A stretch of DNA of 64,000 nt from Gemmatimonadales bacterium (GCA_041615815.1 JBFJCP010000010.1:52258-116257); one strand, 5' to 3'; numbered from the stretch's first letter, positions 41,490 through 52,281 are shown. Notes: generated from the sequence alone by a model not told the origin. Numbers and translations are program-made.

Positions 41490-41535
41490 GCGTAATACGA
41501 CAAGGGCCTCGCACGAGGCCCTTGTCGTATTACGC
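41490..41535. terminator. 22-bp perfect inverted repeat (terminator-like)
   Basis: GCGTAATACGACAAGGGCCTCG-CA-CGAGGCCCTTGTCGTATTACGC. Confidence 0.75.
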
Positions 41536-41632: not shown

Positions 41633-42859
41633 GTGACCCCCTCACGACGGTCGTTCATCGGGGCCCTCGCCACGGCACCGTTGTGGCAACCATTCGCCAC
41701 CATTGGCGGCGCTGGGGTGCGACGAGCGCGCTCCGTGGCCGTGGTGGGAGCCGGCGCGTTTGGCGGATGGTCCGCCCTGGCGCTGCTCCGCGCGGGTGTC
41801 CAGGTCACCCTGGTGGATGCCTGGGGGCCGGGGAACGGACGTGCCAGCTCCGGGGGCGACACGCGCGTGATCCGCACCGAGTACGGCCCGCAGATCTGGT
41901 ACACCCAAATGGCCGCCCGGGCACAGGCGCTTTGGAGGGAGAGTCAGGCCAGGTGGAATCGCCCACTCTATCAACGGACCGGACTCATCTTGATGGTGAG
42001 CGCGGAGGACGAATACCATCGGGCGGCGCTCACGGTACTGCACGACCAAGGGATCGGTGCCGCGGCGCTCAGCCCGGCCGAGGCGGCCCGCCGGTTTCCA
42101 GAGGTCGATTTCTCGGACGTGCAGTGGGTGCTGTGGGAGGAGGATGCCGGCTACCTCCGGGCGCGAGAGGCCTGCCGGGCGGTAGTGGAGGCATTCGTCA
42201 CGGAAGGGGGGACGTATCGGACCGCTGCGGCGCGTCCCGGGAGGCTCACGGCCGCGGGGCTGGACGGCATCGAGCTCTCCGATGGCACTCGGCTGGTGCG
42301 GGACACCTACGTTTTTGCGTGTGGCCCCTGGTTGCCGCGGCTGTTTCCAGACGTGCTCGGTGATTTCGTGACAACGAGCCGCCAGGAGGTTTTTTACTTC
42401 GCCACTCCCGAAGGCGATTCCCGCTTCGACGATGATCGCTTTCCGGTTTGGGCCCATCACGGCGAGCGCTTCTTCTATGGAATACCGGGGAACGATGGGA
42501 GGGGATTCAAGATCGCGGACGACACTCGCGGTCCCCCGTTCGACCCCACACGAGAGGATCGGGTGGTGCGGCCGGAGGCCGTCGCGCGGGTCCGCGCGTA
42601 TCTGGGCATACGGTTTCCGGCGCTGGCGAACGCCCCACTGCTCGAGACGCGAGTGTGCCAGTACGCCAACACTCCAGACGGAGACTTTATTCTCGATCGG
42701 CATCCGGGCGCGGACAACACCTGGCTGGTGGGTGGCGGCTCCGGGCACGGGTTCAAGCACGGACCGGCGATCGGAGAGCTCGTTCGGGATCTGGTGACCG
42801 GACGCCGGGATCCGATACCGATGTTTACCCTTTCGCGTAATCGCGGAGGAGGACCGTGA
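41633..42859 (+). CDS. FAD-dependent oxidoreductase, sarcosine/N-methyl-amino-acid oxidase-like, with Tat motif
   Basis: SRRSFI, VVGAGAFG, SSGGDTRVIR, VCQYANTPDGDFILD, GSGHGFKHG. Confidence 0.88.
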   Translation: MTPSRRSFIGALATAPLWQPFATIGGAGVRRARSVAVVGAGAFGGWSALALLRAGVQVTLVDAWGPGNGRASSGGDTRVIRTEYGPQIWYTQMAARAQALWRESQARWNRPLYQRTGLILMVSAEDEYHRAALTVLHDQGIGAAALSPAEAARRFPEVDFSDVQWVLWEEDAGYLRAREACRAVVEAFVTEGGTYRTAAARPGRLTAAGLDGIELSDGTRLVRDTYVFACGPWLPRLFPDVLGDFVTTSRQEVFYFATPEGDSRFDDDRFPVWAHHGERFFYGIPGNDGRGFKIADDTRGPPFDPTREDRVVRPEAVARVRAYLGIRFPALANAPLLETRVCQYANTPDGDFILDRHPGADNTWLVGGGSGHGFKHGPAIGELVRDLVTGRRDPIPMFTLSRNRGGGP

Positions 42860-44217
42860 GACTTCGCCTCGGGGTGGTCGCCTCTTTCCTGGTGGCGCTT
42901 CCAGCGCCAGCACACGCGCAGTTTTCTCATGACGAGTTCCACGCCACGCTGCGGGGGTGGGCGGAATCGGTGTGGCTGCACGCGCTGGACCGTCGGAGCG
43001 CCGCAGGCGGTCGCGTGAGCGAGAACGGTATCCTCGAGCGCTTCAACGAGGTCATCGACGACAAGTACTTTCTCGATCGCTTGACGGCGGCGTTCACCCC
43101 GATCGAGGACTATGAGTGGTATGCCCGCGAGAGCGGTGTGCGATGGAGTGGTGGGAGCATCACCAAGCGGAGTCTTGCGGTCGATCTCGAGCTCAAAGCG
43201 ACTGTTCCACTCGGTGAGAAATGGGGCTTTGGCGTTCGTGTCAACAAGACGGAGTTCCCGGAGGTGAACCACACCACGTTTCGGTTCCGTCTGGCCCGAT
43301 CGCTTTCCTCTCGCCTGACCGTGTTTGCCGAGTCGTTTCTCGATCCCCAGAAGCCCGGATCCGACGTGGAGGCGGGCATCCGCTGGCGGTCACCGAGTGA
43401 CGCACGCGTCGAGGCCACCATCGGTGTCTTGGATTTCCCCAACGATTTCATCTACCTCAACTTGAACGCGCAGCGACAAACCGGTGTCGACTCCACGCTG
43501 GAATACGAACGTCAACCCATCACCGTTCGTACGTCATTTTCCGTTCCCCTGACGTCCTCGTTTCGGCTCGAGGGTCATGGCGCCGTGGCGAGGCCCTCGA
43601 CCATCCTGGCGTATGAGGGAAAGGATGAGTCCGCGGGGTTCAGGCAGCACGAACGATTCGCATTTGCCGGAGCGCTCCTGGAATGGGTTCCGCGACCGGG
43701 GCTCATGGCCGCAGCGTTCGTGAACACGGTATATGCCCGTTCCATTCGGTCACCACTTTCCGCGGCGGCGCCTGTTGCTTCGTACCGGTTGACCGAGCAA
43801 ACCACGGAGATAGGGATCGTGGGTGCAGTGCGGCTCGCGCCCCGCTGGCGCGTGGATTTTTGGGCGCGACACAGCTGGCGGCCTGAGCGTCGTGTCTTCC
43901 TGGCTGGCGAAGACGCGGATGTCGACTTCATGCTTCGGTCGTTCAACTCGCAAGCGGTGCTGACATACAGGGCGCGCAGTGGTTTTGTGGCCGATCTCGG
44001 AGTGGGATACAACAACGCCCAGACACCCCGTGGTGACGGCCAAGTGCCCTCGACGGGTTCCCTCAAGGGCATCCAGTACCGCATTCGCTACGATGCCGGC
44101 TGGCGGATTCACGACCGGTTCTCGGTGTTGGTGGGCTCGGCAACGGACATCGATGGCGAAAGCGGGGAGGGGGTGTCCTTTGGTGGTGCGCGCGGGCGTT
44201 TTGTGATGTATTGGTAA
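42856..44217 (+). CDS. Putative outer-membrane beta-barrel protein
   Basis: Signal peptide (..PAHA/QF), alternating amphipathic strands, C-terminal RFVMYW. Confidence 0.65.
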   Translation: MRLRLGVVASFLVALPAPAHAQFSHDEFHATLRGWAESVWLHALDRRSAAGGRVSENGILERFNEVIDDKYFLDRLTAAFTPIEDYEWYARESGVRWSGGSITKRSLAVDLELKATVPLGEKWGFGVRVNKTEFPEVNHTTFRFRLARSLSSRLTVFAESFLDPQKPGSDVEAGIRWRSPSDARVEATIGVLDFPNDFIYLNLNAQRQTGVDSTLEYERQPITVRTSFSVPLTSSFRLEGHGAVARPSTILAYEGKDESAGFRQHERFAFAGALLEWVPRPGLMAAAFVNTVYARSIRSPLSAAAPVASYRLTEQTTEIGIVGAVRLAPRWRVDFWARHSWRPERRVFLAGEDADVDFMLRSFNSQAVLTYRARSGFVADLGVGYNNAQTPRGDGQVPSTGSLKGIQYRIRYDAGWRIHDRFSVLVGSATDIDGESGEGVSFGGARGRFVMYW

Positions 44218-44229
44218 CATCGGTATCCG

Positions 44230-45075
44230 ATGTCCCGATCATCGCTACAGCCTTCTACGGTGATTCGGTTCGCCGTCTGCGACCGGATCGTCGACGTAAC
44301 CGTCCCGGATGACCAGACCACGGTGCCGTTGCGCCAGCTGTACCGCCCGTATGAACACCCCGGCGTGGCGAGTCCCCGCGCGGTCCCCAATACCACCATC
44401 ACGATTCGCACGACAGGAGACGGATTTGCCATCCAGCGTGTCGACGGGTCACGTCACATCTGTCCAACACTCGTGCGCCTCGCCACCGAGCTGGAGTTCG
44501 CGCTCACCGAGACGTTCCTCGAGGCGTGCCGGGAATTGCCGCAACTGCATGGCGCGGGCGCCGTGTTGGGGAGCCATGGCCTGCTTGCCCTCGGGTCGCA
44601 GGGAGCCGGCAAATCGAGTATCGCCCTCAACTGGAGCCTCGCGGGGCTTCCGCTCCTGGGTGACGACGTACTGCTCGTAGGCGAGCGCGGCCGGGTACTT
44701 CCCTTCAAGCGCCTCTGCAAGGTCGATCCGTCGATGCTCGAGGGTCGCGGTGTCCCGCTGGAGCACACCCCGTTTTGGGATGGAGTGAGCGCAGAGGCTT
44801 GGTTCGATCCGGCGACGGCGGGGGGTTGGGGCGTAAAGGGCACTGCCGCCGTGATCGCTCGAGTGCAATTCTCGGCTCGCGAACCCCTTACCGTCCGGCC
44901 CCTTGACCGTCAAGCCGTGCTCTCCCTCTTGCTCGGCAGCGTGCTCCCCACCGGGTGTGCGCGACGAGACAGCCTGGATCGTCTGATCGCGGTCGCGGAA
45001 GCAGCACGGGGATACGACATGACCTTTGGCGACGCGCACGAGGCGGCCCTCGCCCTGATCGAACTCGCAGCATGA
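44230..45075 (+). CDS. HPr-kinase-related Ser/Thr kinase
   Basis: LHGAG...GSQGAGKSS (Walker A)...LLGDDVLLV. Confidence 0.82.
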   Translation: MSRSSLQPSTVIRFAVCDRIVDVTVPDDQTTVPLRQLYRPYEHPGVASPRAVPNTTITIRTTGDGFAIQRVDGSRHICPTLVRLATELEFALTETFLEACRELPQLHGAGAVLGSHGLLALGSQGAGKSSIALNWSLAGLPLLGDDVLLVGERGRVLPFKRLCKVDPSMLEGRGVPLEHTPFWDGVSAEAWFDPATAGGWGVKGTAAVIARVQFSAREPLTVRPLDRQAVLSLLLGSVLPTGCARRDSLDRLIAVAEAARGYDMTFGDAHEAALALIELAA

Positions 45076-46184
45076 AGGATCCCCTCGCCACACGACTGTA
45101 CCGCGCGTTGGAAACAGCCGCTGGCACGCTGGATGAGCGTGATCTCGGAGCCTTCGAGTTGGCGGACGCGCTCGGTTTTGGAGGGTTTCTCAGACGGCAC
45201 GGTGATCCCCTTCACGCAAGCTCCGGGTCGTCGGCGGAGTCGTTGATGCGGCGTCTGGTCGAGCGGATCTTGGTGGACACCGCCGCGGAACTCTCCACGG
45301 TGCTCGAAGGGCTGATGGTTCCCCACTTTTTTGCCAAGGGCATCGCCCTCGTGGATTGGGTCTATCGGCCTGGAGATCGCGAGATGGGTGATATCGATCT
45401 CTATGTCCACCCCCAAGCGGCCACGATAGCCGTGAACGCCATGCGTGAAATGGGGTACCGCGACCTCCCGTCCGATGAGCAAAGTGGGCCGTCGAGCTTG
45501 CGTCCGGGTGTCGCGCTGTGCCGGGCGGATGGAGGATCAGATCTGGAGGCGGTCACGGTGGACGTACACTGGGGGGTGGAACCGGTCGACCGTCTCTTGC
45601 CGAGGGCGGACACCAACTTGCCCGAGACGATCTGGGGATCGATTCAGACCCCGGCCGCGGTTCCCATTCCGGATGCCGAGCATCACGCGGCGCTCCTGGT
45701 CTATCACCTGGCGCACCACGATCTGCTGCACGTTCGCGGACTAGTGGACCTCGCACTGGTGTGGCCCAAGATCACCGACGCTCGAACCCTACGTACGTTG
45801 GCGGTTGCCCTGGACGTCGAGCGAGCGCTCCAAGCCCTGGCGCAGGTGCTCGTTCGAGACCTCGGCCTCCCGGCGCACGCGGCGGTGGGCGCCCTGCCCG
45901 ATGACTGGCGCGGCCGACGGCTCCGGCGGCGGCTCGTGCTCCCGCGATGGATCGCGTGGGTGTGGGGATCCGATGCCCGGGAGCTCGTGGAAGTCACTCC
46001 CCGCCGAATCGGTATGCGCCTCCTGTTACTCGACGCGCTCCAGAGCGCCCTGCCACTATTGAGCGACGTCGTGTTTCCGCCGCACGCGCATCTACGCTGG
46101 CGCTGGCCAGAAGCCGAGTCCGAATGGGAGGCGTGGCGGCTGCACGCTGCGAGCGTCACCCGCAAACTCCTGCAGCGTGGATGA
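45072..46184 (+). CDS. Nucleotidyltransferase (NTP_transf_5-like)
   Basis: AKGIAL..VY....REMGDIDLYV, VDVHW; ATGA overlap with the kinase. Confidence 0.85.
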   Translation: MKDPLATRLYRALETAAGTLDERDLGAFELADALGFGGFLRRHGDPLHASSGSSAESLMRRLVERILVDTAAELSTVLEGLMVPHFFAKGIALVDWVYRPGDREMGDIDLYVHPQAATIAVNAMREMGYRDLPSDEQSGPSSLRPGVALCRADGGSDLEAVTVDVHWGVEPVDRLLPRADTNLPETIWGSIQTPAAVPIPDAEHHAALLVYHLAHHDLLHVRGLVDLALVWPKITDARTLRTLAVALDVERALQALAQVLVRDLGLPAHAAVGALPDDWRGRRLRRRLVLPRWIAWVWGSDARELVEVTPRRIGMRLLLLDALQSALPLLSDVVFPPHAHLRWRWPEAESEWEAWRLHAASVTRKLLQRG

Positions 46185-46232
46185 CTCCACCTTGCCTCCG
46201 TTTTCGCCTCTGGCAATCTTGCAACACGTGCC

Positions 46233-46523
46233 ATGAATACCGACCCGATACCCGGACGCCCCCTCGCCCGCGAGGACGTGCTGTTTCGCCAGCTCGACGA
46301 TCAGTGGGTGATCTTCGATCCAGTGACCGATCGGCTTCACGCGCTCAATCTCAGCGCGGCGCTCGTATGGACAGCATGTACCGGTGAGCGACGGATCGAC
46401 GAGATCGTCGACGACGTGGCAGAGTCGTTTGACCCGCCGGTGGATCGCGAGCGGACGCTGGGCGAGGTGACGGAAGCCATCGAACGATTTCGAGAGCAGG
46501 GGCTCCTCATTGAGCGACATTAA
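46233..46523 (+). CDS. PqqD-family RiPP recognition element
   Basis: VIFDP..RLHALNLSAALVW..CTGER.IDEIV...FREQGLL. Confidence 0.88.
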   Translation: MNTDPIPGRPLAREDVLFRQLDDQWVIFDPVTDRLHALNLSAALVWTACTGERRIDEIVDDVAESFDPPVDRERTLGEVTEAIERFREQGLLIERH

Positions 46524-47691
46524 GTACTATCGCGACCTGCTCCAACAGCGGCGCCGCATCGAAGCATTCCGGCGAGCCATCCATGCGGTAGTCCAGCCAG
46601 GAGACCGGGTTCTGGAGATCGGCGCCGGTTTGGGCACGTTCGCGTTTTTTGCAGCCGATGCCGGCGCGGCTCAGGTCTGGGCGGTGGAAGGTGACCCCAT
46701 TGTCCACGTCGCCAGCACGATTGGACAGTGGAACGGATATGCCGATCGAGTCGAATTCATGCGAGGATGGATCCCGTCGGTGGAGATCCCAGCGCCGGCT
46801 GATGTGCTCATCTTCGAGGATTTTCCGCCGCGTCTGCTGAACGGACAGTCGTTTCGGCTGCTCCGGTGGGCGCACCAGCGCTACGTCACAGCAGACGTGC
46901 GCGCCGTACCGGCCGCCGCCACGCTGTTCGTCGCACCCGTCTCCGATCCCAAGCTGTGGCAAGAGGTTGCGCCCTTTGGGGTGAATGGACCGGACGACGT
47001 TCGGTATGATGTGGATTGGAGCGCGAGCAGGGAGTACCTCGTCAACCAGCCAATCAACGTGAAGATCCCGGCGGCCGCTCTCGCGGGCGAACCTAAGCCA
47101 CTGGGGACCGTGCGTTTCGATCGCTCCCCGGCCATCCGAGATCTCGGTGGGGAGGCCCAGCTTACCGTGAACCGTTCGTGTCCGCTTCACGGGCTCGCCT
47201 TTTGGTTCGACCTGGATCTCGGTGGTGGCGAACTGCTCTCCAACGCGCCGGGGGCACGCCCCGGTTCTTGGGGTCATCTCTTTCTTCCGGTGGACAACCC
47301 TCTCGCCGCCTCGCCGAGCGAGCCGATACGAGCGCAAATCGAGGCTCGCGAGTCGGCGGATGGAGTGCCGGGCTGGCTTGCCTGGGAGGTCGCGACCGGT
47401 GGTAAGGTCTGGCGCGGTTATGAGTTAGCCGGGGTCCCCGCCGGGGTCATCGATTACGAGAGTCAAACCTCCGACTTCGTCCCCCACCTGAGCCGCGATG
47501 GGGCGCTCGAAGCCCTGGTGTTCCAGCTCACAAACGGGGAACGGTCGGTACGCGAGATTGGAACGGAGGTTCGGCGCCACCGGACGGACTTGAGCCAGGC
47601 CGAAGCCGAACGGGTCGTGACCGCGGTTTTGCGCAACCGGATCCGTCTGGACGAGGTATTCTCCGGCGTCCTGCAGGAGGGAAGCAAATGA
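46510..47691 (+). CDS. SAM-dependent methyltransferase with PRMT-like architecture and C-terminal winged helix
   Basis: RIEAFRRAI, VLEIGAGLG, AGAAQVWAVE, ADVLIFE, HGLAFWFDL, LSNAPG...SWG; tail QLTNGERSVREI. Confidence 0.82.
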   Translation: MSDIKYYRDLLQQRRRIEAFRRAIHAVVQPGDRVLEIGAGLGTFAFFAADAGAAQVWAVEGDPIVHVASTIGQWNGYADRVEFMRGWIPSVEIPAPADVLIFEDFPPRLLNGQSFRLLRWAHQRYVTADVRAVPAAATLFVAPVSDPKLWQEVAPFGVNGPDDVRYDVDWSASREYLVNQPINVKIPAAALAGEPKPLGTVRFDRSPAIRDLGGEAQLTVNRSCPLHGLAFWFDLDLGGGELLSNAPGARPGSWGHLFLPVDNPLAASPSEPIRAQIEARESADGVPGWLAWEVATGGKVWRGYELAGVPAGVIDYESQTSDFVPHLSRDGALEALVFQLTNGERSVREIGTEVRRHRTDLSQAEAERVVTAVLRNRIRLDEVFSGVLQEGSK

Positions 47692-47942
47692 AAGACGAAC
47701 AGCGACGTGAGTTCTTGAAGAAGCTGGCGAAGGGCGCAATCTACGCGGCCCCGGTGATACACAGTATGACGGCTCCGCTTGAAGTGGCAGGGCAGGGTAG
47801 TTCCACCAGTCACAAAACCGACCATGGCAACATGGGACATGGCAAGGGTGGGGCGAGTCCCGCCTCCGGTCCCTCCCTGGGCGGCCCGTCCCCCGGCTCG
47901 CAGCCGCCTCCAGGGGCGACTCCGCCATCGCGACAGCCGTAA
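47688..47942 (+). CDS. Putative RiPP-like precursor peptide (84 aa)
   Basis: AGGAGG RBS, ATGA overlap; RREFLKK and YAAPVI leader; Ser/Thr/His/Gly/Pro-rich C-terminal part. Confidence 0.75.
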   Translation: MKDEQRREFLKKLAKGAIYAAPVIHSMTAPLEVAGQGSSTSHKTDHGNMGHGKGGASPASGPSLGGPSPGSQPPPGATPPSRQP

Positions 47943-47962: not shown

Positions 47963-48001
47963 CACGACGCCTCTGCCCAACGGCAGAGGCGTTCGTGTAT
48001 T
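47963..48001 (+). terminator. Hairpin closing the peptide operon
   Basis: ACGCCTCTGCC-CAAC-GGCAGAGGCGT followed by TCGTGTATT. Confidence 0.65.
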
Positions 48002-48073: not shown

Positions 48074-49498
48074 ATGGACCAATTCGATCTGATCGCCGTT
48101 GGCGGTGGCACGGCTGGCTTGGTGGCCGCTGCGGGTGCAGCGAGCTTGGGTCTCCAAGTAGCGCTGGTGGAGCGTGAGGCGCTCGGCGGCGACTGTCTCT
48201 GGACCGGCTGCGTTCCGAGCAAGGCGCTCATCGCATCGGCGCGGCTGGCGCATGCCATGCGGCACGCCTCCGAGCTGGGGCTCGAGGGCGCCGCGCCCTG
48301 TCACGCGTTCGAACGGGTCATGGCGCGAATGCGCCGCGCCCGCGCCCGTGTGGCGGAGCACGACGATCCGGAGCGGTTTCGACGGCTGGGGATCGAAGTG
48401 GTGTTTGGCGCCGCCACCTTCACGGGTCCTGACCGGGTCCAGGTCAATGGGCGGACATTGACGAGTCCCCGGATCGTGCTCGCCACGGGAGCGATTCCGT
48501 CCATTCCTCCGATCCCGGGTCTCGCCGAGGTCGGGTTTCTCACGCATGCATCGGCGTTCGATCAGGAGACGCTTCCCGGCCGGATCGCAATCATCGGTGG
48601 GGGACCTATCGGTCTCGAGTTTGCCCAGATCTATCGCCGGCTGGGGGCCGAGGTAGCCGTGATCGAGATGCTTCCCCGCCTCTTGCCGTCGGAGGAACCG
48701 GACGCTGCTCTTGCCATCGAAGGCGTACTCTTCAACGAGGGGATCCGTGTCAGCACCCATGCGCGTGTGGAGCGGGTCGAACGAGGGGCACGTGGCGAGA
48801 AGGTCTTGCATGTGAAAGGTCGTTCGGGAGGCGTGGACGCCGTGGTGGCGGATGAGATCTTCGTCGCTACGGGCCGCCGGCCCGACACCGATGGCCTGAA
48901 TCTCCCGGCCGCGGGCGTGGAGATTGAGAATGGAAAGGTCCGCGTCGACGATGGCCTTCGTACCACCGCCCGGGGTATCTGGGCGGCCGGGGACGTGGCT
49001 GGCGGCCCCCAGTTCACGCACGTGGCGGACTACCAAGCCAAGCTCGTGCTCCGAAATGCCATCTTTCCGCTGGCGTCCAAGGCGAACTATGATGCGGTAC
49101 CGGCCGTAACCTATACGGACCCCGAGGTGGCGTCCGTGGGGCTCACCGAGCAGGAAGCTCGGGAGCGCTATGGCCATGCGGAGGTCTATCGCTACGAGTT
49201 CGCCGATCTGGACCGAGCCATCGTGGATGGGCATACCACGGGTTTCGTGCGGATCGTCGTGCGTAAACGCGGCAAGATCGTGGGCGCAACGATCGTGGGC
49301 AGTGGGGCCGGCGAGCTCTTGATGCCCATCGTGCTGGCGCTGAAGAACGGACTCCCGCTTCCCAAGCTCTCCCGGGTCATTTATCCGTATCCCACCATGG
49401 TCGAAGGGGTCAAGCGTACGGCGGACAGCTACTACCGATCCAAGCTCGCTGGCCGAACGGGCGCGCTGCTCCGACGCGTGGTGCGGTGGCTGACATGA
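48074..49498 (+). CDS. Pyridine nucleotide-disulfide oxidoreductase (class I; Lpd/MerA-like)
   Basis: GGGTAG, GGDCLWTGCVPSKAL, IGGGPIGLE, AAGDV, YTDPEVA, YPYPT; no C-terminal CC. Confidence 0.9.
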   Translation: MDQFDLIAVGGGTAGLVAAAGAASLGLQVALVEREALGGDCLWTGCVPSKALIASARLAHAMRHASELGLEGAAPCHAFERVMARMRRARARVAEHDDPERFRRLGIEVVFGAATFTGPDRVQVNGRTLTSPRIVLATGAIPSIPPIPGLAEVGFLTHASAFDQETLPGRIAIIGGGPIGLEFAQIYRRLGAEVAVIEMLPRLLPSEEPDAALAIEGVLFNEGIRVSTHARVERVERGARGEKVLHVKGRSGGVDAVVADEIFVATGRRPDTDGLNLPAAGVEIENGKVRVDDGLRTTARGIWAAGDVAGGPQFTHVADYQAKLVLRNAIFPLASKANYDAVPAVTYTDPEVASVGLTEQEARERYGHAEVYRYEFADLDRAIVDGHTTGFVRIVVRKRGKIVGATIVGSGAGELLMPIVLALKNGLPLPKLSRVIYPYPTMVEGVKRTADSYYRSKLAGRTGALLRRVVRWLT

Positions 49499-50196
49499 GC
49501 CGTCCAAGTCCCTACCTCAAGCTCGTGGCCCTGGTCGTCCTCATCGGCGCGGCCATGGGGGCGTATTTCTTGACCCCGCTTCGGGATGTCTTGGCGTTGG
49601 ACCGTGTGGCAGCATCGTTCGAGACACTGCGCGCATCGATGTGGGCGCCGGCGGTGTTCGTCGTGCTCTATGCCACCGCCACTGCACTCGCGATTCCCGG
49701 CTCGGCCCTGACGATCGCCGGAGGCGCTGTCTTCGGCTTCTGGTTTGGGTCGCTCCTCAACACCATCGGCGCCAACATCGGAGCCAATGCCGCCTTTGGG
49801 TTATCGCGCGCGCTCGGCAGGGACGGCGTCGAGCGAATCGCTGGCAAGCGTCTCGAGGGTCTGGACAAGGCCAGCGCGGAACACGGGTTCCTGGGCCTGC
49901 TGGTGCTGCGATTGATCCCGCTGGTTCCGTTCAACGCGTTAAACTTCGGTTCCGGTCTCACCGCTATCCGGTGGGTCCACTACGCCCTGGCGACGGTGGT
50001 GGGCATCCTGCCAGGTACGCTGGTGTATACGTTCTTTGCGGATGCTCTAGTGGAAGGATCCACGTCTGCGAGCCAGGACGCGCGGACACGACTGTGGATT
50101 GCCGGGGTGCTCTTTCTGGCGCTGGCGCTGATTCCCCTAGTCGCCAAACGACTCGGTTTCCGATTGAAGACCAATTCGTCGCGTGAGGTTGCCTGA
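49495..50196 (+). CDS. TVP38/TMEM64 (DedA/VTT) family membrane protein
   Basis: IPGSALTIAGGAVFG, LRLIPLVPFNALN, GILPGT. Confidence 0.9.
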   Translation: MSRPSPYLKLVALVVLIGAAMGAYFLTPLRDVLALDRVAASFETLRASMWAPAVFVVLYATATALAIPGSALTIAGGAVFGFWFGSLLNTIGANIGANAAFGLSRALGRDGVERIAGKRLEGLDKASAEHGFLGLLVLRLIPLVPFNALNFGSGLTAIRWVHYALATVVGILPGTLVYTFFADALVEGSTSASQDARTRLWIAGVLFLALALIPLVAKRLGFRLKTNSSREVA

Positions 50197-50999
50197 TGCC
50201 GTTGTTCGTCTCCTTGCTCGCAATGCTGGCCACCGTGCAACTCGGAGCGCCAGCGCTTCCAGACCATTCGCAGTTCGATCGGGTCCTCGAGGGTTATCTC
50301 CACGATGGTCTCGTGGATTATGCAGGTCTCAAGGCGGACCGCAACGGTTTGGACGCGTACATCACCGAACTCTCTCGCACGACGCTCCACGATCTCGCAG
50401 CCGCCTCGGTCCACGCCCAGCTCGCCTTCTGGATCAACGCCTACAACGCCTGTGCACTCCGTTTGGTTATCGATCACTATCCCATCGGGAAGCGGAAGCT
50501 GGTGGCCGGTCTCGTGAACTCCATCGCCGGTGTTCCCGACAATTCCATCCGGCAGATTCCCAACACATGGAAACGCGAGTTTTGTCCTGTGGCCGGCAAA
50601 GATCGAGCGCTCGATGAGATCGAGCACGAGATCATCCGTCCCATGGGCGATCCACGGATTCACTTCGCCGTGAACTGTGCGTCCCGTTCGTGCCCGGTGT
50701 TGGCACCGACGGCCTACCGCGCGGATTCACTGGACGCCCAGCTGGACGCGGCGGTAGGTCGCCTCATGGAGGACCCGCAGCACTTCACCTTCGAGCGTGG
50801 CGAGGCTCCGATACTTCGGCTGAACAAGGTGCTCGATTGGTATAAAGACGATTTCGGCGGGACCTCCGGTGTCGTGGAGTTCTTCACGCGCTATTTGCCG
50901 GAGGCAGAAGCAACGATGCTTCGCACACGGGAAGTGAAGGTGGAGTACTTCGAGTACGACTGGACCCTGAATGACACGGCGGTCTTCGGCGCCAGTTGA
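50196..50999 (+). CDS. DUF547 domain protein (exported)
   Basis: VDYAGL, AFWINAYNA, IEHEIIR, DPRIHFAVNCASRSCP, YDWTLN. Confidence 0.9.
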   Translation: MPLFVSLLAMLATVQLGAPALPDHSQFDRVLEGYLHDGLVDYAGLKADRNGLDAYITELSRTTLHDLAAASVHAQLAFWINAYNACALRLVIDHYPIGKRKLVAGLVNSIAGVPDNSIRQIPNTWKREFCPVAGKDRALDEIEHEIIRPMGDPRIHFAVNCASRSCPVLAPTAYRADSLDAQLDAAVGRLMEDPQHFTFERGEAPILRLNKVLDWYKDDFGGTSGVVEFFTRYLPEAEATMLRTREVKVEYFEYDWTLNDTAVFGAS

Positions 51000-51691
51000 C
51001 CGCCGTGACCCACTGCGCCGTCATCATCCCTACGCTGAACGAGGCGCGCTTCCTCCCTCGACTCCTGGAGGATTTGCGTCCGCTCGACGGGTTGGACGAG
51101 GTCATCGTCGTCGACGGCGGTTCTACGGATGATACCCTGCAACTTGCACACGACGCGGGCGCACGGGTGCTCACGGCGCCCCGTGGGCGTGCCAGCCAGC
51201 TGAATGTCGGCGCCGTGGCGAGCACTGCCCCATGGCTGTGTTTTCTGCACGCGGATGTGCGTGTGCCCGCTGGCGCTCGAGCGGAGCTGCAAAAGACGCT
51301 GACGCGGGCAAGCGTGGATGTAGCCGTCTGGCGCTTTGCGATTGACGAGCGGGGCGCGTGGTTTCGCATCGTGGAATTTGGGGCCTGGCTCCGCGACCGG
51401 CTTGGCGGGATGCCGTATGGCGATCAGGGCCTCTTGGTCCGTCGGCCGTTGTTCGAGGCTGTGGGCGGCTATCCGCCCATCCCGATCATGGAGGATGTGG
51501 CATTGCTCCGCACACTTCGGTCCTGCCGCCGCGTGCGACGATTGCGGTCTCCGCTGCTCGTCTCTCCCCGACGCTGGCACCGTGAGGGCCCCTTTCGCAC
51601 GTGGATGAGGAATATTGCGCTCGTGGTGGCTTATGCCGCTGGCGTTTCACCGCATCGCTTATCGCGCTGGTATCGGCCCGAGCCGCAGTGA
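50996..51691 (+). CDS. GT2 glycosyltransferase, TIGR04283-like
   Basis: IIPTLNEA, VDGGSTDDT, RGRASQLNVGA, FLHAD, PYGDQG, PIMEDV, SPRRW. Confidence 0.88.
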   Translation: MTAVTHCAVIIPTLNEARFLPRLLEDLRPLDGLDEVIVVDGGSTDDTLQLAHDAGARVLTAPRGRASQLNVGAVASTAPWLCFLHADVRVPAGARAELQKTLTRASVDVAVWRFAIDERGAWFRIVEFGAWLRDRLGGMPYGDQGLLVRRPLFEAVGGYPPIPIMEDVALLRTLRSCRRVRRLRSPLLVSPRRWHREGPFRTWMRNIALVVAYAAGVSPHRLSRWYRPEPQ

Positions 51692-52281
51692 CGACTGTGC
51701 TGTTGTTTGCCAAAGCGCCGCGCGCGGGGCTCGTGAAGACTCGGTTGGCGCGTGACGTGGGCGAGGAACGGGCGCTCGCGTTGTATCGGAGTGTCGGAGC
51801 GCGAGTCGCCGCACGTGTGGGAGCGGCCTATCCGATCACGGTGTGGTTCGAGCCCCAAGAGGCTGAGAACGAGATGCGCGCGTGGCTGGGGAACCGTGAG
51901 TTTCGGCCGCAGCCCACGGGTGATCTCGGTCTGCGAATGCAGCGGGCGTTCGCAACGCATCTCGATCGTGGTGATCGCCCGGTCATTGCCATCGGCGCGG
52001 ACGCGCCTGGGGTCGATGCCACCGTGGTGGCCGAAGCCGTGCGGGCGCTCGAGACCGCCGACGTCGTGCTCGGACCTGCGGTGGATGGTGGGTACTATCT
52101 GCTCGGGGTGGCGCGCTCGATACCCGACCTCTTTCGCGAGATTCCGTGGGGAACGGCAACGGTGCTCGCGCGCACGCTCGATCGTTGCCAGGCGCTTGGG
52201 GTCTCGACGGCGCTGCTCGCAACGTTGCGCGATCTCGACACGGCAGCCGATCTCGCGCCCCTCGGCTTGGATTCCCCTTGA
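51688..52281 (+). CDS. TIGR04282/DUF2064 glycosyltransferase-like protein
   Basis: FAKAP.AGLVKTRL, QPTGDLG.RM, IGADAP, LGPAVDGGYYLLG, IPWGT, DLDT..DL. Confidence 0.88.
   Translation: MTTVLLFAKAPRAGLVKTRLARDVGEERALALYRSVGARVAARVGAAYPITVWFEPQEAENEMRAWLGNREFRPQPTGDLGLRMQRAFATHLDRGDRPVIAIGADAPGVDATVVAEAVRALETADVVLGPAVDGGYYLLGVARSIPDLFREIPWGTATVLARTLDRCQALGVSTALLATLRDLDTAADLAPLGLDSP

Follow-up and report, generated by a model that had tools for sequence, protein, structure and literature searches.

A conserved five-gene cassette probably encodes a linear phosphorylated peptide with a leader resembling a twin-arginine export signal

Introduction

Peptide kinases and their nucleotidyltransferase (NTase) partners have been described in clusters for peptides that are ribosomally synthesized and then post-translationally modified (RiPPs), including phosphorylated lasso peptides and the LPP system. 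BsfK phosphorylates Ser3 of the lasso precursor BsfA with the help of a RiPP recognition element (RRE), and a set of His, Walker A and DD motifs was shown to be important in this kinase (PMC10368454); the same residues are required by PsmK (PMC6993621). PsmN needs its DxD motif (PMC6993621) and is required for the addition of a +162 hexose to phosphoserine (PMC11912497). The RREs of lasso and LPP systems bind the leader motif [YW]xxPx[LVIFA], and LppA has the register Y-16/P-13/V-11/S3 (PMC13381572). Here, we describe a cassette that combines such enzymes with a methyltransferase that has a protein arginine methyltransferase (PRMT) fold and a precursor peptide. It lies in the region 41633-47942, on the + strand, of a 64,000-nt stretch from a Gemmatimonadales bacterium (GCA_041615815.1 JBFJCP010000010.1:52258-116257), hereafter called the window.

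Signal peptides have been called highly unusual as RiPP leaders, and cases that use the Sec or the lipoprotein route have been demonstrated (PMC12452194, PMC13056109); for bufferins, a modifying partner has been proposed to mask the signal (PMC12452194). The main texts of these two papers contain neither "Tat" nor "twin". PRMT1 is described as holding arginine through E144, E153 and H293 (PMC8592882). A literature search found no description of the present system, of a RiPP leader for twin-arginine translocation (Tat) or of a RiPP enzyme with a PRMT fold, although subscription papers and the LPP supplements may hold one.

Our reading, to which we assign a probability of about 0.6, is that the five genes form a RiPP pathway that joins the lasso/LPP tailoring kit to the cell's own export machinery, so that a linear phosphorylated peptide would be exported by Tat and cut by a housekeeping peptidase.

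Results

Five genes form a conserved cassette

Homologues with names put the source genome in Gemmatimonadota. A kinase, an NTase, a PqqD-family protein, a methyltransferase and a peptide make up a real, conserved and uncharacterised system:

44230..45075, + strand: HprK-like peptide Ser/Thr kinase, 281 aa (core gene)
45072..46184, + strand: NTP_transf_5 (PsmN/LppN/BsfN-like) enzyme, 370 aa (core gene)
46192..46220, + strand: putative internal promoter motif of sigma70 type, ending 12 nt ahead of the PqqD start
46233..46523, + strand: predicted discrete PqqD/RRE leader-binding protein, 96 aa (core gene)
46510..47691, + strand: PRMT-fold S-adenosylmethionine (SAM) methyltransferase with altered active site and optional C-terminal helical domain, 393 aa (core gene)
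47688..47942, + strand: precursor peptide, 84 aa (core gene)
47688..47792, + strand: predicted 35-aa dual leader, with RREFLK at 47703-47720, YAAPVI at 47742-47759 and a signal peptidase site after Gly35
47793..47939, + strand: predicted 49-aa core with Gln start, Ser-rich beginning and Gly/Pro-rich tail (unmodified monoisotopic mass 4596.15 Da)

We collected 148 loci with a methyltransferase alignment, representing 119 distinct methyltransferase loci. Of these, 55 had at least 3 kb of upstream and at least 1.5 kb of downstream sequence and were counted, and the other 64 were dropped. Of the 34 close loci (methyltransferase identity of at least 37%), all 34 had PqqD, 31 had the kinase, 27 had the NTase and none had a lasso B2 protease. 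The peptide lay near the methyltransferase in all 34, which bears out an initial annotation of the window that had proposed its conservation beside homologous enzymes as a check. In the 21 more distant loci, kinase and PqqD were found in 21 each, and NTase and peptide (by leader profile) in 7 each. Since the loci were chosen via the methyltransferase and are mutually related, these counts overstate independence, and to that extent the case for the pathway is weaker than the figures suggest. Synteny, together with the failure of the lasso alternative, supports the proposal of the initial annotation, a linear, non-lasso RiPP-like pathway with a kinase, a nucleotidyltransferase, an RRE, a PRMT-fold methyltransferase and a conserved precursor.

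A search led by the peptide instead of the methyltransferase gave matches in 17 of 401 genomes of the phylum, and the methyltransferase adjoined the peptide in 15 of the 17; the other two, G132 and G304, gave no match to the methyltransferase at E<=1e-30. G132 is an unpublished genome, on which the figure of 17 and one of these exceptions depend. Cassette carriers belong to Gemmatimonadota, Acidobacteriota, Methylomirabilota, Poribacteria, Nitrospinota and Fidelibacterota. In all three genomes with a kinase-less locus, kinase and NTase sit together elsewhere, and in all five Fidelibacterota-type genomes with a precursor-less enzyme locus the precursor is encoded elsewhere (in trans).

The motif TTG[CA]...A[TG][CTG]TT stands before PqqD in 21 of 38 close loci, and the count was 0 of 38 each time at six control offsets; the pattern had been written after the sequences had been viewed. 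A strict promoter scan found nothing. In three genomes the cluster splits along the same line, with PqqD, methyltransferase and peptide on one side and kinase and NTase on the other. The motif suggests a separate PqqD-methyltransferase-peptide transcript.

Some loci vary in arrangement. L070 and L110 have one methyltransferase gene followed by two tandem precursor genes with differing cores. Compared with L108/L109, L042/L119 have the precursor some 2.7 kb further downstream and a longer methyltransferase frame, probably reflecting an insertion or an assembly difference. The source genome also contains a second cassette (contig C15, L038:7189-9742, minus strand) with an RRE, an HprK-like kinase and an NTP_transf_5 enzyme and no methyltransferase. 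Its precursor is 58 aa long, with a twin arginine, a WxxPxV motif and an AFA/Q site; the core of 13 aa has no Ser/Thr and one Tyr, which makes the kinase target puzzling.

Kinase, NTase and RRE retain the motifs of characterised relatives

The kinase gave weak family matches (Hpr_kinase_C, E 0.0072; TIGR04352, 18.6 bits vs a cut-off of 200). It retains the His, Walker A and DD motifs: across 80 homologues, H107, G127, K128 and D145 are invariant, G122 is conserved in 96%, and position 146 is Asp in 83% and Glu in 16%. The NTase matches PF14907 (E 5.6e-21), with D107-x-D109 conserved in 98% and D164 in 94% of 54 homologues.

The 96-aa protein matches PqqD (PF05402, E 4e-12), and the YAAPVI of the leader fits the [YW]xxPx[LVIFA] motif. 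The initial annotation had called for a model of the PqqD-leader complex. The modelled complex with leader residues 1-45 scored 0.52, against 0.01 for the best control (contact agreement between runs of at least 95%; pLDDT of the partner 63). Of 157 solved complexes, 116 attain this mark, as do 2 of 215 mismatches, and those passing at 0.60 or below comprise only 18 solved complexes and both mismatches. Moreover, RRE-leader complexes have already been solved, so the pass may reflect likeness. We infer that the PqqD/RRE protein binds the leader motif, for which the model speaks weakly.

The leader resembles a Tat signal ending in a signal peptidase I site

The precursor family comprises 407 representatives at E<=0.001. 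In an alignment of 69 members, R6 and P22 are invariant, and R7 and Y19 are conserved in at least 90%. For leader statistics, 81 of the 83 distinct locus peptides could be anchored. A twin arginine is present in 78 of these 81 leaders, the first Arg precedes the conserved Tyr by 13 residues in all 81, Phe occupies RR+3 in 72, and 75 contain 13 or more consecutive uncharged residues. Tyr itself is conserved in 95%; counted from it, Pro is found at +3 in 100% and at +11 in 83%, followed by L/A/V at +14 (95%), G/A at +16 (90%) and Gln at +17 (66%), the last four corresponding to -6, -3, -1 and +1 of the cut. A second set, 143 of 147 database representatives, showed the same leader profile.

At the chosen register the (-3,-1) rule holds in 73 of 79 leaders, compared with 0-7 at five shifted registers. 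Among the host's own signal-like N-termini, 125 of 235 show [AG]Q at positions 15-40, vs 42 in a control window, and their residue at -3 is Leu in 41, Ala in 38 and Val in 13. Leaders from Acidobacteriota, Methylomirabilota and Nitrospinota end in AxA-type motifs. Judged by these patterns, the leader end is a predicted signal peptidase I site of the host's own [LAV]-x-[AG]/Q type. Median leader hydrophobicity is 1.48, a value inside the span (0.61-1.97) covered by 10 Tat-like proteins from the source genome. TatC is present in that genome and in 27 of 28 others. S26 peptidases (PF10502) occur in 14 of 14 genomes and none near the cassette, with no S26 peptidase among 89 proteins neighbouring cassettes. 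The leader thus probably doubles as a Tat export signal, and a Tat-signal leader with a signal peptidase I site would explain the absence of a dedicated protease and exporter. The earlier suggestion that the peptide is exported or surface-displayed had overlooked both features of the leader; its barrel route found no support.

In the source genome and most same-family genomes, TatC lies inside an open frame of about 1,180 aa (G000:C9:72519-73154), compared with about 270-340 aa in others, which suggests a large TatC fusion.

A peptide search in the Atlas returned unnamed clusters only (0.90-0.91, low recognition). Two long matches of the peptide profile that we inspected have no N-terminal RR leader, and one is a repeated internal YAAPV motif.

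Variable cores share early serines

Core sequences vary; Met, Gly, Pro and Gln are abundant in them and Arg is scarce. Serine accounts for 99 of 385 residues at core positions +2 to +6 vs 169 of 2353 beyond +10, a 3.6-fold enrichment, and every one of 77 cores has Ser/Thr within its first 10 residues. In the window peptide a Ser stands at core +3 (Ser38, codon 47799), which is the first candidate phospho-site. Arg is lacking from 29 of the 77 cores, Arg and Lys from 10, and Arg, Lys and His from 3.

The window core has no Cys. Precursors of Acidobacteriota type and Methylomirabilota type (L104, L158, L164, L168, L171, L173, L184; L079, L160, L174, L178) have Cys in their cores, and many Gemmatimonadota cores are Met-rich (6.7% vs 1.3% in the enzymes); such cores hint at periplasmic metal binding. 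The orphan precursors of Fidelibacterota type (L204-L208) have Trp/His-rich cores with a polyproline end and lie between probable lipoprotein genes, far from the enzyme genes, which are in exopolysaccharide loci.

The methyltransferase has a PRMT fold with an altered active site

The methyltransferase was modelled with a pLDDT of 93.2 and matches PRMT_C (E 5e-5) and PRMT6 (E 1.4e-42). A structure search gave PRMT3 at Z 30.4 (root-mean-square deviation 2.6, 296 aligned residues), PRMTs at Z 23-30 and the best non-PRMT methyltransferase at Z 12.4. According to the model, the enzyme therefore has a true PRMT fold, with Rossmann and beta-barrel domains. Across 120 homologues the first Glu of the double-E loop (E103) is conserved in 100%, the second in 7%, and the His of the THW motif is replaced. 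Thus, the PRMT-like fold proposed in the initial annotation stands, and the loss of the arginine-binding residues of PRMTs had been overlooked.

Because the second Glu and the THW His are lacking and 29 of 77 cores contain no arginine, the target is probably new; methylation of core arginine is disfavoured on the same grounds. Our first choice, held tentatively, is a phospho(glyco)-Ser, favoured because early Ser/Thr, the kinase and the leader arginines are the universal features. A nearby Lys or His would be a more doubtful target, and a leader Arg an unlikely one.

As a possible second RRE, the C-terminal 80 aa of the methyltransferase gave an hhalign probability of 49% (E 1.7e-4 over 40 columns) and weak scores from hidden Markov models (HMMs), and their single-sequence model (pLDDT 64) had no PDB match at E<=0.001. 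This helical domain is missing from many methyltransferase homologues.

Eleven loci with more distant methyltransferases contain a cyclase-like gene and a kinase, most also an RRE, an NTase and B2, together with lasso-like candidate precursors. In a quick version of the methyltransferase tree, their enzymes form one side of a branch with support 84. Since these sister enzymes sit in lasso-type loci, lasso peptides and linear ones alike appear to be served by the same tailoring kit, a parallel to paeninodin and LPP.

In the lasso-type Gemmatimonadota clusters L036, L037 and L188-L196, the first Glu of the PRMT-fold methyltransferase is mostly Asp, and many of the candidate cores have Lys/Arg and then Ser/Thr at their end. 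Bacterial PRMTs of the phylum with the full double-E loop and THW motif also exist (L197:3956-4918, minus strand; L198:1003-2031, plus strand).

Neighbouring genes and boundaries

The initial annotation had proposed a seven-gene operon that also included an upstream flavoenzyme and a barrel, bounded by hairpins. The additional features are:

41490..41535, + strand: perfect 21-bp hairpin behind the M14 peptidase gene, z -9.76
41633..42859, + strand: sarcosine-oxidase/SolA-type FAD amine oxidase with Tat-like N-terminus, neighbour outside the conserved system
42856..44217, + strand: probable outer-membrane beta-barrel, neighbour outside the conserved system
47963..47997, + strand: downstream hairpin, probable 3' boundary, z -5.83, without U-tract

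All seven same-direction open reading frames are present on the + strand, the junction gaps (-4, +12, -4, +48, -14 and -4 nt) match exactly, and AGGAGG, a strong ribosome-binding site, stands upstream of the ATG of the 84-aa peptide. The HprK-like, nucleotidyltransferase, PqqD, PRMT-fold, barrel and flavoenzyme families were recovered, with weak kinase and PRMT_C matches. For the barrel, which had no Pfam match, the Atlas gave beta-barrel-like neighbours at 0.94-0.97; the flavoenzyme matches DAO (E 6.7e-44) and PRK11259 (222 bits vs a cut-off of 257). In agreement with the initial annotation, family searches with the seven proteins matched no cyclase, B2 (transglutaminase-like) protease, radical SAM, YcaO or ABC family. 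Both hairpins fold far better than shuffles (0 of 200 shuffles fold as well as 41490-41535); neither has a U-tract or an entry in the terminator scan of the window.

Membership of the two upstream genes did not survive. Barrel and flavoenzyme were each found in 1 of the 34 close loci, and in 37 close loci with at least 5 kb of upstream sequence they occurred together in one, from a same-genus genome. In a second same-genus genome the kinase lies directly behind the M14 gene, with no barrel or flavoenzyme between. Being nearly absent from close loci, they are local neighbours only, and on synteny we rejected them as members of the system. Barrel homologues occur in 8 of 14 cassette-bearing genomes (6 gave no match); outside the source genome and its same-genus relative they are on other contigs, and the five we inspected had unrelated neighbours and no adjoining cassette gene. 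Downstream, the region 48074-52281 contains a pyridine nucleotide-disulphide oxidoreductase, VTT/DedA, DUF547 and two more genes; it recurs behind the cassette in about 12 loci and not in others.

Discussion

The proposed pathway is based on gene content, conservation, motifs and fold, from which chemistry, binding and export are inferred. The PqqD/RRE protein would bind the YxxPx[VI] leader motif, and because this motif lies inside the hydrophobic signal region, binding would keep the peptide cytoplasmic until it is modified. The HprK-like kinase would then (poly)phosphorylate a Ser just past the cut, likeliest Ser38 or Ser39 by comparison with BsfK and LppK. With less certainty, the NTP_transf_5 enzyme would cap the phosphate, likeliest with a hexose as PsmN does. 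The PRMT-fold enzyme may move a SAM methyl onto something besides core arginine. Finally, the leader would carry the bulky product through Tat, and signal peptidase I would cut after Gly35, releasing a 49-aa peptide with a Gln start into the periplasm.

Several observations weigh against this pathway. The NTase is absent from 7 of 34 close loci, and of its relatives PsmN is reported to be inactive in vitro (PMC11912497) and LppN to be without effect in a heterologous host (PMC13381572). The early Ser is not fixed in position (10% at +3, 47% at +4, 41% at +5). Moreover, a register two residues later also fits the (-3,-1) rule in 60 of 79 leaders, so that the exact cut and the Ser numbering are uncertain. 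The leader of the window peptide has a hydrophobicity of 1.13, below the family median. Curated Tat models match weakly (TIGR01409 in 8 and TIGR02811 in 12 of 69 members); the TIGR01409 matches are at E<=0.05 with a best value of 0.0027 and do not include the window peptide, itself a weak Tat-target family match. RK replaces RR in 3 of 81 leaders, and 4 of 5 Fidelibacterota-type orphan precursors are without a clear AxA site.

Weak Tat HMM scores, lysines that follow the twin-arginine motif, the RK variants and the unclear peptidase site of those orphan precursors would all fit an alternative in which the modifications are the same and the twin-arginine helix serves for enzyme docking or is a relic, with the peptide cytoplasmic or exported by an unlinked protease and transporter. 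We consider this unlikely, since the leader end fits the host signal peptidase motif, with AxA-type motifs in other phyla, and no S26, B2 or conserved exporter is found near the cassette. A role in switching Tat export rather than tailoring is also conceivable for the PRMT-fold enzyme, which would then methylate the invariant leader arginines. The true PRMT fold, the leader RR as the only arginine common to a family with 29 of 77 Arg-less cores, and the RRE-methyltransferase-peptide sub-unit, which has its own promoter-like motif and is kept together when kinase and NTase move, point in this direction. However, the guanidino-binding second Glu and THW His described for PRMT1 (PMC8592882) are missing, and the sister enzymes in 11 lasso-type loci accompany candidate precursors without a Tat-like leader, which makes this role quite improbable.

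The same orientation, overlapping junctions and strong flanking hairpins of all seven genes could instead mean one unit, in which the barrel would serve to export or display the peptide and the flavoenzyme would have the peptide as its substrate, through N-demethylation for instance; N-methyl groups are a possible target of a SolA-type oxidase, and barrel homologues occur in 8 of 14 cassette genomes. With both genes in 1 of 37 close loci, a same-genus kinase right behind the M14 gene and barrel homologues among unrelated neighbours elsewhere, we give this little credence. It is very unlikely that the enzymes act on another substrate, such as an envelope glycan or protein, with the peptide as regulator or decoy: distant loci do lie in exopolysaccharide clusters (Wza, Wzc, Wzy) and 14 of 21 have no adjacent precursor by leader profile, but all 5 such genomes tested proved to encode a precursor in trans, a pattern search yielded one in L101, and the RRE motif and Ser enrichment agree with characterised substrates. 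An ordinary lasso precursor, with cyclase and B2 protease encoded elsewhere, is already largely refuted. The YxxPx[VI] motif is shared with lasso systems, related methyltransferases occur in lasso clusters, and searches of the genome gave four matches to asparagine synthase plus a marginal one to Transglut_core3. However, Thr(-2) with Asp/Glu at core 7-9 was found in 0 of 77 precursors in any of four registers, B2 in 0 of 34 loci, and the genome matches, on other contigs, are AsnB-like frames of 590-690 aa and a 536-aa protein whose gene precedes that of an ABC ATPase. Lasso processing in trans was therefore rejected.

If the Tat-exported linear peptide is the correct reading, a Tat leader with an RRE motif would let bulky phospho-glycopeptides be exported in a simple way and could serve as a part for engineering. 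The bacterial methyltransferase, found in linear and lasso clusters alike and rebuilt in its active site, bears on PRMT evolution and, given both properties, probably carries out new peptide chemistry. The cassette also offers a defined substrate for NTP_transf_5 enzymes, a little-understood group that includes LppN and PsmN. More speculatively, and with less than even odds, one leader may serve as both RRE dock and Tat signal in a multi-phylum class, with the RRE as export proof-reader and the PRMT scaffold either performing non-arginine chemistry (methyl-capping of phospho- or phosphoglycosyl-serine) or methylating the twin arginine to gate export. The precursors would then be the missing substrates of HprK/PqqD/NTase cassettes.

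Among known systems, PRMT1/3/6 share with the methyltransferase the Rossmann and beta-barrel domains, the SAM motifs, the first Glu of the double-E loop and the Trp of the THW loop. In contrast, the cassette enzyme lacks the second Glu and the His, starts at the helix after the PRMT N-terminal segment, has an optional C-terminal helical domain, and is bacterial and RRE-linked. Bufferins/oxazolins (Sec; PMC12452194) and DAG-RiPPs (signal peptidase II; PMC13056109) likewise have a precursor leader that is an export signal, but they are described with MNIO chemistry and Sec or signal peptidase II signals, whereas no MNIO family is found among the seven proteins and the core here has no Cys. The HPr-rel-A cassette (TIGR04352/TIGR04353) also pairs an HprK-related kinase with a PqqD-family protein, and the kinases find their best NCBIfam match in TIGR04352; both scores fall below their cut-offs (18.6 vs 200 bits and 24.1 vs 35 bits), and here a precursor and a methyltransferase are identified.

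The phosphorylated lasso systems (bsf, PMC10368454; pseudomycoidin psm, PMC6993621; paeninodin) have the same kinase motif set and an NTP_transf_5 partner. With a cut after Gly35, the register here (Tyr-17/Pro-14/Ile-12/Ser+3) parallels that of BsfA (Tyr-17/Pro-14/Leu-12/Ser3; PMC10368454). However, B2, cyclase, ABC exporter and Thr/Ile(-2) with a ring acid are absent here.

LPP (LppA/K/B/S/D/N, Bacillota; PMC13381572), as described, is alike in its discrete RRE, HprK-like kinase and NTP transferase and in having no macrolactam cyclase (here, one of the 34 close loci has a weak cyclase-like match at a distance of about 10 kb). It also shares a YxxPx[V/L] leader, a variable core with Ser near 3, signal-peptidase-type cleavage and a frequent link to polysaccharide loci. 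In contrast, the LPP cluster contains a dedicated SpI-like peptidase and an MsbA-like exporter, whereas no such peptidase is near the cassette (S26 being elsewhere in 14 of 14 genomes) and an ABC exporter-like match was found in only 1 of 34 close loci. The LPP consensus is YxxPxVLxHQxIxFETxxS, from which the present family diverges after YxxPxV. The twin-arginine leader, the host signal peptidase site, the added PRMT-fold methyltransferase and the phyla beyond Bacillota also set it apart. Judged by gene content and motifs, the cassette is predicted to work like LPP, falls outside it in dedicated peptidase, exporter and leader consensus, and would represent a further form of linear phosphorylated RiPP.

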